A stretch of 41,023 nt of DNA from a virus (taxonomy: Duplodnaviria; Heunggongvirae; Uroviricota; Caudoviricetes): positions 1 through 41,023 of IMG/VR virus record IMGVR_UViG_2541047694_000003. One strand, written 5' to 3'. Made by a program: the position numbers and the translations under genes. Under the pieces are notes generated by a model that did no database searches, had not been told where the DNA came from, and saw only the letters and a list, made by a program, of their open reading frames with translations. Shown here one piece after another: positions 31,875 to 32,945 of this stretch (positions within the stretch are counted from its first letter, which is position 1; the number at the start of each line of letters is the position of its first letter).

Positions 31875-32945
31875 TTACCCCCTGAAGCCCGGTGGAATTT
31901 CGGTATCCGGTTCAGAAATATGATTCACACAACGCTGGTTGTTCGTACCGCTTACCGGGAGCAACCAGGGGTTTTCAAAATTCCGGTCCGGTCCAAAAAA
32001 CGTCGTCGCTCGCTGAACAAATTCCGTTCCCGTTTTCTCGGTAGCCGCCAAGTATCTTGCGTAACGCCTCACGCCATCCAGCATGGCCTCTGGTGGCACC
32101 CCCTCGCGTAATCTGGCCTTCCAGGCACTGAAAGCGGATTTCTTCGGGTTTGCTCCGGCACGCAACGGGTACTCCCGCCAGACCTGTTCGAACACATCCG
32201 GATAATCCACTCGTCCCACAGACAGCCCGGTGTTTTCCGGGACTACCCGATCGGCTTCCCGCTGAATGGCGGAATCGGTTTCAGGCTGCTGCAGTTGGTG
32301 TGATTGTTCCGGCCTTTGGGTCATCACCTGCTGCACAGCGCCCGAATCGGCTTTCAGCGCATACGCTGAATCGGCTTCCGGTGTCGTGCCTGCTGGCTGA
32401 CCAGGATTGACGGTCTGAACATCCCCTGCCTGGTTCGTGGCGTTTTTTACGCCATGGCCCATAGTGTTTTGATCTTCTTGATCTGTATCTTTATCTGTAT
32501 CTTTATCTGTCGTGACTCGTCGTGACATGTGCGTGACATTTCGTGACGCGCCGTGACAATCGCCATTTTGTTCCCGCTTTCTTTCCCTCTCTCGCTGCGC
32601 CCTCTTGCGCTCTGCAGGAGATTTTGCGGTTTGCGAAATATTGCCGTTGTCCTCTTTAAGCACCTGGCGTTTTTCCCATCCAGTGATTAAATCACCATCA
32701 AGTACCCGCCCCTGCATCGTCTGCAAAATTGAATCAATTACCTCTTCTGTCACGTCGAGCGCACTTGCCAAATCTTCTGTCGTGACATCAATGTGACCTC
32801 GCGTGACATTTCGTGACGCGCTCACCAGGAGGTGGATATACACTGCCATCACTGTTGCAATTGGCTGCCCTGACACCCTGGCAATTGTTCGCCACTTAGG
32901 GTCATTTGGCATGTCATGCCATAATCTGAGCCAGGCGTTAGCCAT
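31875..32945 (-). CDS. replication initiator-like protein (O-like / YdaU-like position)
   Basis: tracked ORF 31875..32951 starts at GTG; ATG MANAWLRLW... at 32945; contains internal iteron-like repeats; follows the cII/YdaT-like gene. Confidence 0.55.
   Translation of the reverse strand: MANAWLRLWHDMPNDPKWRTIARVSGQPIATVMAVYIHLLVSASRNVTRGHIDVTTEDLASALDVTEEVIDSILQTMQGRVLDGDLITGWEKRQVLKEDNGNISQTAKSPAERKRAQRERERKREQNGDCHGASRNVTHMSRRVTTDKDTDKDTDQEDQNTMGHGVKNATNQAGDVQTVNPGQPAGTTPEADSAYALKADSGAVQQVMTQRPEQSHQLQQPETDSAIQREADRVVPENTGLSVGRVDYPDVFEQVWREYPLRAGANPKKSAFSAWKARLREGVPPEAMLDGVRRYARYLAATEKTGTEFVQRATTFFGPDRNFENPWLLPVSGTNNQRCVNHISEPDTEIPPGFRG
32481..32557. repeat. tandem 12-bp repeat (ATCTGTATCTTT x2.5) followed by five CGTGAC hexamers at 10-11 bp spacing
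   Basis: CGTGAC at 32511, 32521, 32532, 32542, 32552; lies within the replication gene, encoding ...SRNVTHMSRRVTTDKDTDKDTD... Confidence 0.7.
32781..32817. repeat. second cluster of CGTGAC-type hexamers at 10-11 bp spacing
   Basis: CGTGAC at 32781, TGTGAC at 32792, CGTGAC at 32802 and 32812; CGTGACATTTCGTGACGCG shared with the first cluster. Confidence 0.7.

Follow-up and report, generated by a model that had tools for sequence, protein, structure and literature searches.

What do two clusters of a short, regularly spaced repeat do inside the coding sequence of a phage replication gene? The question is raised by a 41,023-nucleotide stretch of DNA from a virus of the Caudoviricetes (IMG/VR record IMGVR_UViG_2541047694_000003, positions 1 to 41,023; this whole stretch is called the window here), in which the gene of a putative replication initiator contains repeated copies of the hexamer CGTGAC. 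A preliminary description of the window had proposed that the copies are iterons of a prophage origin, placed as in lambda, with a duplicated coding segment as the alternative. Comparison with related sequences makes it probable that the two hexamer clusters and an AT-rich tract built of AGATAA repeats together form a replication origin inside the gene of its own initiator, on the plan of lambda and SPP1.

Two phased clusters and an AT-rich tract in the initiator gene

The word CGTGAC on the + strand is GTCACG on the strand of the initiator gene, and the latter form is used below unless the + strand is named. Cluster B consists of five copies that start at + strand positions 32511, 32521, 32532, 32542 and 32552 (spacing 10, 11, 10 and 10 bp), exactly as first described. 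In cluster A, for which three to four copies had been given, there are three exact copies (starts 32781, 32802 and 32812) and one copy with a single mismatch (TGTGAC at 32792), spaced by 11, 10 and 10 bp. The two clusters are ~270 bp apart. The sequence reported as common to both is real but was measured short: it is not a 19-mer but the 21-mer GCGTGACATTTCGTGACGCGC, located at 32531-32551 and again at 32801-32821. The 12-bp tandem repeat TCTTTATCTGTA that adjoins cluster B (32476-32510, reading DKDTDKDTD on the minus strand) was also found as described. Over both strands of the window, exact matches to the hexamer number 37, against 18.3 +/- 3.9 in shuffled sequences. Nine of the 37 fall within 307 bp, where 0.14-0.21 would be expected (Poisson P(>=9) ~4e-14 to 2e-12). 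The coordinates of all features are collected in Table 1.

The copies do not keep to one reading frame. Those of cluster B lie in frames 1, 2, 0, 2 and 0 and those of cluster A in frames 2, 0, (variant) and 0, and depending on the frame GTCACG is translated as C-H-G, S-R or V-T. Because all three frames are occupied here, and other frames in relatives, the hexamers are a DNA repeat and not a peptide repeat. A duplication of a coding segment or a peptide repeat was rejected on the same grounds, since copies stand in three frames and the period of 10-11 nt is not a multiple of three.

The initiator is predicted to consist of a winged-helix domain (aa 1 to ~100; the N-domain in what follows), a basic helix (aa 112-133), a disordered linker (aa ~139-250), and a helical C-domain (aa ~250-318) followed by a DnaT-like tail. 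Cluster A encodes SASRNVTRGHIDVTT (aa 44-58), which covers the end of the third helix (31-47) and the loop ahead of helix 58-65. Cluster B encodes CHGASRNVTHMSRRVTT (aa 132-148), where the basic helix ends and the disordered linker begins. The proposal of a lambda-like origin at the interdomain linker therefore stands for cluster B and the AT-rich tract, and the comparative tests below agree with it, but cluster A lies inside the coding sequence of the DNA-binding domain.

An AT-rich element adjoining the repeats, which the preliminary description had suggested looking for, directly follows cluster B in the direction of transcription, where the disordered linker is predicted to begin. Its GC content is 30%, against 54% for the gene, and the 40-nt window with the lowest GC of the gene falls within it. 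Of 26 relatives, 24 likewise have their lowest GC within ~15 nt of the end of cluster B, in a stretch built of AGATAA(A) repeats, and this holds even where the gene's GC is 60-69%. A different reading frame does not abolish the motif: loci L007, L013 and L029 have GATTAGATAAGAG, coding for LDKIREE or RLDKRR instead of DKDKDK. It is also retained in the subfamilies with the repeat words GTAACG and CGAACG (see below), with an eightfold expansion in L039. Both where the tract lies and how it is composed are as expected for a DNA unwinding element; it is a candidate for one and may melt.

Whether the bases or the amino acids of these segments are conserved was addressed with a codon alignment of 26 genes of the GTCACG type, ranging from Escherichia to Pseudomonas, Bordetella and Aeromonas (gene GC 42-69%). 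A codon was counted as in a hexamer when its third base falls inside the hexamer. At conserved residues the normalised synonymous codon entropy was 0.08 in hexamers (12 codons) and 0.81 outside them (62 codons; Mann-Whitney p=6e-8). Outside the hexamers conserved Leu and Arg residues use 5-6 synonymous codons. Inside them the codons are nearly invariant: Val is GTC (25/25 and 26/26), Thr is ACG (25/25), Gly is GGT (25/25), His is CAC (25/25 and 24/24) and Ser is TCA (23/25 and 26/26). The codons of the AT-rich tract are AT-biased, with Asp as GAT in 22/22 and Lys as AAA in 19/20 cases, whereas GAC and AAG dominate elsewhere in the gene. These patterns point to purifying selection that acts on the repeats and the AT-rich tract at the level of DNA and not of protein. 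In protein alignments the otherwise variable linker shows an invariant peptide, CH..SRNVT.DKD. This peptide is invariant because it is encoded by the hexamers, and its conservation is a by-product of the DNA words.

Polymorphism within E. coli was also considered. Among 55 near-identical IMG/VR versions, variation was seen at 2 of 60 sites inside hexamers and at 22 of 410 outside them (p=0.75), and the diversity of this set is too low for the comparison to be informative. All nine copies are retained in 52 of 56 distinct versions of the E. coli set.

Distribution of the repeats among relatives

Related DNA was taken from 38 loci with an N-domain in a one-genome-per-species collection (185,579 species), from 80 near-identical viral contigs and from deposited phages. 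The 38 loci and two deposited phages make up a set of 40 N-domain relatives. Absence of the repeats from relatives had been named in the preliminary description as evidence that would count against an origin. Two phased clusters are present at the same two offsets in 35 of the 40. The cluster word is GTCACG in 27 of the 40 loci, at ~+116 to +147 and ~+375 to +440 from a conserved Trp codon, and ~4.5 kb of flanking DNA contains only 0-5 copies on both strands together. Of 151 pairs of adjacent copies, 108 are spaced by 10 bp and 31 by 11 bp. Cluster A has four copies at the same offset in 21 of 26 relatives, cluster B has 3-6, and the two are ~250-280 bp apart. A single inverted hexamer is found at the same offset (+179) in many relatives, and the Val codon there is GTG in 21/21. 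The distance between the clusters seems to change in 10-bp steps, which could suggest a fixed helical phase between them, but these steps are explained by gain and loss of terminal copies, and no phase relation is claimed.

The repeats follow the N-domain and not the rest of the protein. The first 161 residues match more than 900 protein clusters (at the 90% identity level) that carry several different C-terminal domains and come from Enterobacteriaceae, Pseudomonas, Bordetella, Aeromonas, Chromobacterium and other hosts. In Pseudomonas phage phita81A the N-domain is joined to a different C-domain, and there are phased GTCACG copies in two groups of four (4+4). Aeromonas phage pAEv1818 has the same N-domain, another C-domain, and 3+3 copies. 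In Shigella phage 75/02 Stx the situation is reversed: the C-terminal half is the same (81% nucleotide identity), the N-domain is unrelated, and there is not a single hexamer copy. A search of that gene for a phased array found none; its repeats are (CAGGAA)n, in frame in the linker, and PE(A/T)DSA units in the peptide. Nor do the repeats regularly accompany any particular neighbouring gene. BLASTP clustering of the open reading frames within 1.5 kb on each side gave no neighbour family present at more than 11 of 26 loci. Upstream genes of the relatives include YdaT-type, lambda-CII-type and small HTH proteins, and downstream genes include DUF977, DnaC-like, primase-helicase, DnaB and ParB-like proteins. 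The N-domain is the sole gene feature common to all array-bearing loci.

In distant subfamilies of the N-domain the two places are the same but the words differ, and the copies are again phased, every 10-11 bp. GTAACG is found in L025 and L028 (Pantoea, Enterobacter) and independently in L036 and L038 (Marinobacter, Sphingomonas), and CGAACG(C) in L033, L035, L037 and L041. Within every genome the word of cluster A is the word of cluster B. Within one clade, the sites that read GTCACG, or CGTGAC where inverted, in L030 read GTAACG, or CGTTAC, in L028, and L025 is intermediate, with a mixture of the two. The differences among these three are mostly at synonymous positions. In L006, L030, L031 and L038 the loop encoded by cluster A has insertions, and these are made of extra hexamers.

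Five of the 40 relatives are exceptions. In L040 (a Serratia metagenome-assembled genome, MAG) and L042 (Pantoea) the N-domain is fused to a GIY-YIG-like segment (YVYYV...GIS.NPW.R), and in place of the two hexamer clusters there is one cluster of ACTACGTA-type repeats, which follows the N-domain directly (~+300 to +350). In L032, L034 and L039 no more than one or two CGAACGC-like sites are present.

The family is common. Related DNA is present in 3360 of 5426 complete E. coli genomes (~62%), and 1567 of these cover at least 80% of a 2.4-kb query. In a plasmid collection the N-domain was detected only in prophage-bearing large replicons, misfiled chromosomes and two phage-like molecules, which is weak support at best. 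The latter two, L125 (CP137943.1) and CP124671.1, are 50.9-kb circular 'plasmids' of clinical P. aeruginosa, yet they are lambdoid phage genomes with no plasmid replicon type. They contain an S24 repressor, CII, an initiator of the same type, a DnaB-like helicase and NinB/NinG, and may be episomal or induced phage DNA.

Table 1. Positions of the initiator gene, its repeats and other features in the window. Strand refers to the window as presented.
Feature	Position	Strand	Description
Initiator gene ('phage replisome organizer')	31875..32951	-	358 aa; holds both clusters
DnaT-like C-terminal tail	31878..31949	-	24 residues, GTNNQRCVNHISEPDTEIPPGFRG (also given as QRCVNHISEPDTEIPPGFRG); short, weak match
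36-nt direct repeat	32250..32285 and 32346..32381		in frame, 96 nt apart; encodes PE(A/T)DSA repeats in the disordered linker
AT-rich tract	32471..32510	-	ACAGATAAAGATACAGATAAAGATACAGATCAAGAAGATC, purine-rich on the gene strand; candidate DNA unwinding element; encodes TDKDTDKDTDQED
Cluster B	32511..32557	-	five phased GTCACG copies on the gene strand
Weak sigma-70-like match	32533..32560	+	antisense to the initiator gene; made of hexamers (GTGACA resembling a -35 box)
Inverted single hexamer	32749..32754	+	CGTGAC on the gene strand, within L-D-V-T codons
Cluster A	32781..32817	-	four phased GTCAC(G/A) copies on the gene strand
Region of a defence-like locus	28862..31195		interrupted by the IS3-family element
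IS3-family element	28862..30045		ISEc52-like; two overlapping transposase open reading frames
Nuclease gene	29978..31195	-	Cap4-type dsDNA nuclease and AAA_22 domains
DicF antisense sRNA	35566..35617	+	Rfam RF00039, 76.7 bits
Gene of an 813-aa protein	36262..38703	+	C-terminal DnaQ-like 3'-5' exonuclease domain; in the recombination region

The initiator, its neighbours and a possible course of initiation

Over its full length the initiator matches PHROG 3729, 'replication initiation protein' (E 9e-254). Weaker matches are to PHROG families of a 'DnaD-like helicase loader' and a 'replisome organizer', the latter remote (E 6e-6 and 3e-4). No Pfam family matches it at E<=0.01. One match falls short of the threshold: Phage_rep_org_N (PF09681) scores 12.7 bits, where the gathering score is 23.3 (E 0.13), but residues 7-124 span positions 1-118 of the 121 in this profile. 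Identical and near-identical copies are named 'phage replisome organizer' or 'hypothetical protein' in RefSeq. The predicted winged helix of the N-domain has its nearest solved folds in CRP-type winged helix-turn-helix (wHTH) proteins, the DnaD N-domain, a plasmid Rep initiator and winged-helix domains of ORC. This domain is the likely binder of the hexamers, judging from its predicted fold and from its linkage to them.

The C-terminal end was compared with DnaT. The tail aligns with positions 156-179 of the NCBIfam DnaT model NF002770 (E 0.0016, 18.1 bits against a cut-off of 201) and with the DnaT chains 6aep, 2ru8 and 9zbt of the PDB (E 0.02-0.08). The match to this equivalog model is not full-length but confined to the last 24 residues. 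Many relatives of the N-domain carry a full DnaT DNA-binding domain, and no similarity was found between their DnaT-domain (PF17948-type) C-domains and the C-domain of the initiator, so only the tail is counted as DnaT-like. It may be a handle for loading of the host helicase. At the site of helicase loading, the C-domain of DnaT is known to assemble on single-stranded DNA as filaments (PMC13377028). The C-domain of the initiator also occurs with other DNA-binding N-domains, such as HTH_36, and this varied pairing indicates modular exchange. The linker additionally contains an in-frame direct repeat that encodes PE(A/T)DSA units (Table 1). The same motif is found in the C-terminal half of the Shigella phage 75/02 Stx protein (L003 1873-1986).

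The window belongs to a lambdoid prophage inserted beside a tRNA-Ser gene next to mtfA. Its immunity region is of the Qin/DicB type, as is concluded from the DicF gene together with ydfA/B/C, dicB and ydfD in an identical RefSeq record. The genes follow the order LexA-like repressor, Cro, YdaT/cII-like, initiator, DUF977 ('Ren-like'), nuclease, IS3, SEC-C genes, RusA and Q. There is no helicase or helicase-loader gene (P-type, DnaB-type) beside the initiator in the window. Such genes are found in some relatives: a DnaC-like one in pAEv1818, and DnaB-like or primase-helicase ones in Pseudomonas elements and L019. No DnaA box with at most one mismatch occurs between 30197 and 40948.

Several other features of the prophage were recorded. 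The IS3-family element is inserted into a defence-like locus, and in RefSeq it is flanked by proteins labelled 'dsDNA nuclease domain' and 'SEC-C metal-binding'. A DnaQ-like exonuclease domain is encoded in the recombination region (Table 1). The integrase gene beside tRNA-Ser is frameshifted in a 100%-identical RefSeq record and an IS insertion lies nearby, so this copy of the prophage may be defective or inactive.

The properties of the repeats also bear on explanations other than an origin. The initiator could bind them for the sake of control, as an intragenic roadblock to transcription of its own gene or by handcuffing or titration, with the true start elsewhere or with cluster B alone as the origin and cluster A serving control. 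Control iterons acting by handcuffing or titration are known from the plasmids P1, F and RK2, and plasmid systems with two iteron clusters use one of them for control. Here both clusters lie within a transcribed gene, and there are two of them, separate from each other, whereas lambda needs one. However, no copies are found in the promoter region, the conserved AT tract abutting cluster B is needed by an origin and not by a roadblock, and no other origin-like repeat array was seen in the 2.5-kb flanks of the relatives. Control as the main role is unlikely for these reasons, though it is compatible with an origin and the two are not exclusive.

Recognition by some other factor is considerably less likely still. 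This could be a host protein or the regulator encoded by the cII-like/YdaT gene directly upstream, which might activate an antisense promoter toward the repressor gene. Lambda CII indeed binds direct repeats one helical turn (10 bp) apart in coding sequence, and the weak sigma-70-like match on the + strand is made of the hexamers, but promoter-like matches in the region are near chance (5 found, 2.4 expected) and the four to five copies per cluster exceed what an activator site needs. Identical GTCACG arrays also stand beside unrelated upstream genes, with no neighbour family in more than 11 of the 26 loci. A host factor in particular is improbable because the word changes between close relatives in related hosts, as it does between L028 and L030 of the same host family. 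Least credible of all is that the repeats act in RNA, as a protein-binding or structural element of the mRNA, or are a plain coding duplication or peptide repeat. It is true that most copies have one orientation on the coding strand and that the peptide SRNVT occurs twice in the protein. Yet the stretch duplicated between the clusters is only 21 nt long, the copies use all three frames, and their period of 10-11 nt matches one turn of the DNA double helix. Inverted copies are also conserved, in many loci at +179 and in the clade of L025, L028 and L030 at several sites, and they point to double-stranded recognition. A scan of 31000-36500 with Rfam detected no known RNA family except DicF, hence none over the repeats.

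If the clusters and the AT-rich tract are an origin, its use can be pictured as follows. After derepression, transcription from the early promoter on the Cro side would pass through the cII-like gene, and the initiator would be made. Its winged-helix domain would bind the GTCACG words, and since these are 10-11 bp apart the bound molecules would line one side of the helix. A nucleoprotein oligomer resembling the lambda O-some might then form, possibly bridging clusters A and B, and strain the duplex until the AT-rich tract opens and replication starts there. The C-terminal half with its DnaT-like tail could recruit the host DnaB/DnaC machinery. This route is proposed because no gene next to the initiator in this prophage encodes a helicase or a loader.

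A broader reading can be put forward only tentatively. The loci may represent a distinct and widespread class of bipartite origins, with iterons both in the coding sequence of the winged-helix domain and at the linker, in which sequence specificity, copy number and protein co-evolve. They would evolve as a unit because the sites are written into the initiator's own gene: a gain of iterons would add residues to a loop of the domain, and the 'SRNVT' and 'CH' motifs would exist only through the DNA words. An initiator without a partner may in that case imitate the DnaT tail, feeding the replication-restart route of the host so that DnaB is loaded without a phage loader.

An initiator of this type is present in prophages of most sequenced E. 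coli and of many other Proteobacteria, yet it comes without an origin annotation, and the deposited phage records give none for its gene. The searchable papers describe origins only for lambda-type O/P modules. The present analysis offers a precise candidate, nine hexamers and a 40-bp AT tract. It would permit the prediction of replication compatibility or specificity groups (GTCACG, GTAACG, CGAACG) among co-resident prophages and the construction of new lambdoid-style replicons. It is also a clear natural case of a DNA-binding site whose constraint fixes amino acids across three reading frames. The principle was to be expected; the element is very common and unannotated.

Comparison with known systems

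Lambda iterons are units of ~19 bp with internal (dyad) symmetry. The iterons proposed here have a 6-bp core in direct orientation, repeated every 10-11 bp, and form two clusters (4 and 5 copies) instead of one, with one of the two inside the coding sequence of the DNA-binding domain. The general plan is nevertheless similar. In lambda, and also in the Stx phages P27 and 933W, the origin lies within gene O and combines initiator-binding repeats with an AT-rich tract (PMC7466680). Here as there, the candidate origin is inside the initiator gene, repeats are followed by an AT-rich tract along the direction of transcription, and the site (cluster B and the AT tract) marks the boundary between the DNA-binding N-domain and the remaining protein. 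The gene is likewise transcribed in an early operon of the rightward type, after cro and cII (PMC7466680). In the O proteins of Stx phages extra iterons mean extra residues (PMC7466680), as extra hexamers do in the cluster A loop. The likeness does not extend to homology: the initiator shows none to lambda O (Pfam Phage_rep_O), and no O-family match was found among 32 relatives at E<=1. Downstream there is DUF977 and no P-type loader gene. The absence of homology, the other repeat architecture and the missing P-type gene place the initiator outside the lambda O family.

The origin oriL of SPP1 lies in gene 38, where direct repeats, together with an AT-rich unwinding element, are bound by the gene's own product, G38P (PMC6316719, PMC5615212). 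The window is alike in having direct repeats as well as an AT-rich element within a gene of the replisome-organizer type, and binding by its own product appears likely here too. It differs in that its initiator is only a sub-threshold relative of the G38P family (Phage_rep_org_N). Its clusters are 270 bp apart in one gene, whereas the second origin of SPP1, oriR, is 13 kb away, and it has no loader or helicase gene adjoining the initiator, whereas SPP1 encodes both.

With the Rep proteins of theta plasmids (for example the initiator of a staphylococcal multiresistance plasmid, 4pta) the initiator shares a winged-helix fold, which here is predicted. Iterons of theta plasmids are typically 17-22 bp long with two-turn spacing, are intergenic and are often accompanied by DnaA boxes. 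Those of the window have a 6-bp core and one-turn spacing, are intragenic and have no DnaA box within several kb. There is no detectable sequence similarity to the N-terminal domain of DnaD, and the match to host DnaT is limited to the tail.

No description of GTCACG iterons or of an origin of this type was found in the searchable literature, which included work on the 'Eru' replication regions of Stx phages, and papers beyond it may hold one. An apparent match, a paper on mobile elements of Pf-5, concerns the unrelated oriV of an integrative and conjugative element (ICE). What distinguishes the candidate origin from the systems above is its 6-bp core repeated at every helical turn, its bipartite layout, its conserved AGATAA tract, and the combination of a DnaT-like tail with the absence of a dedicated loader.

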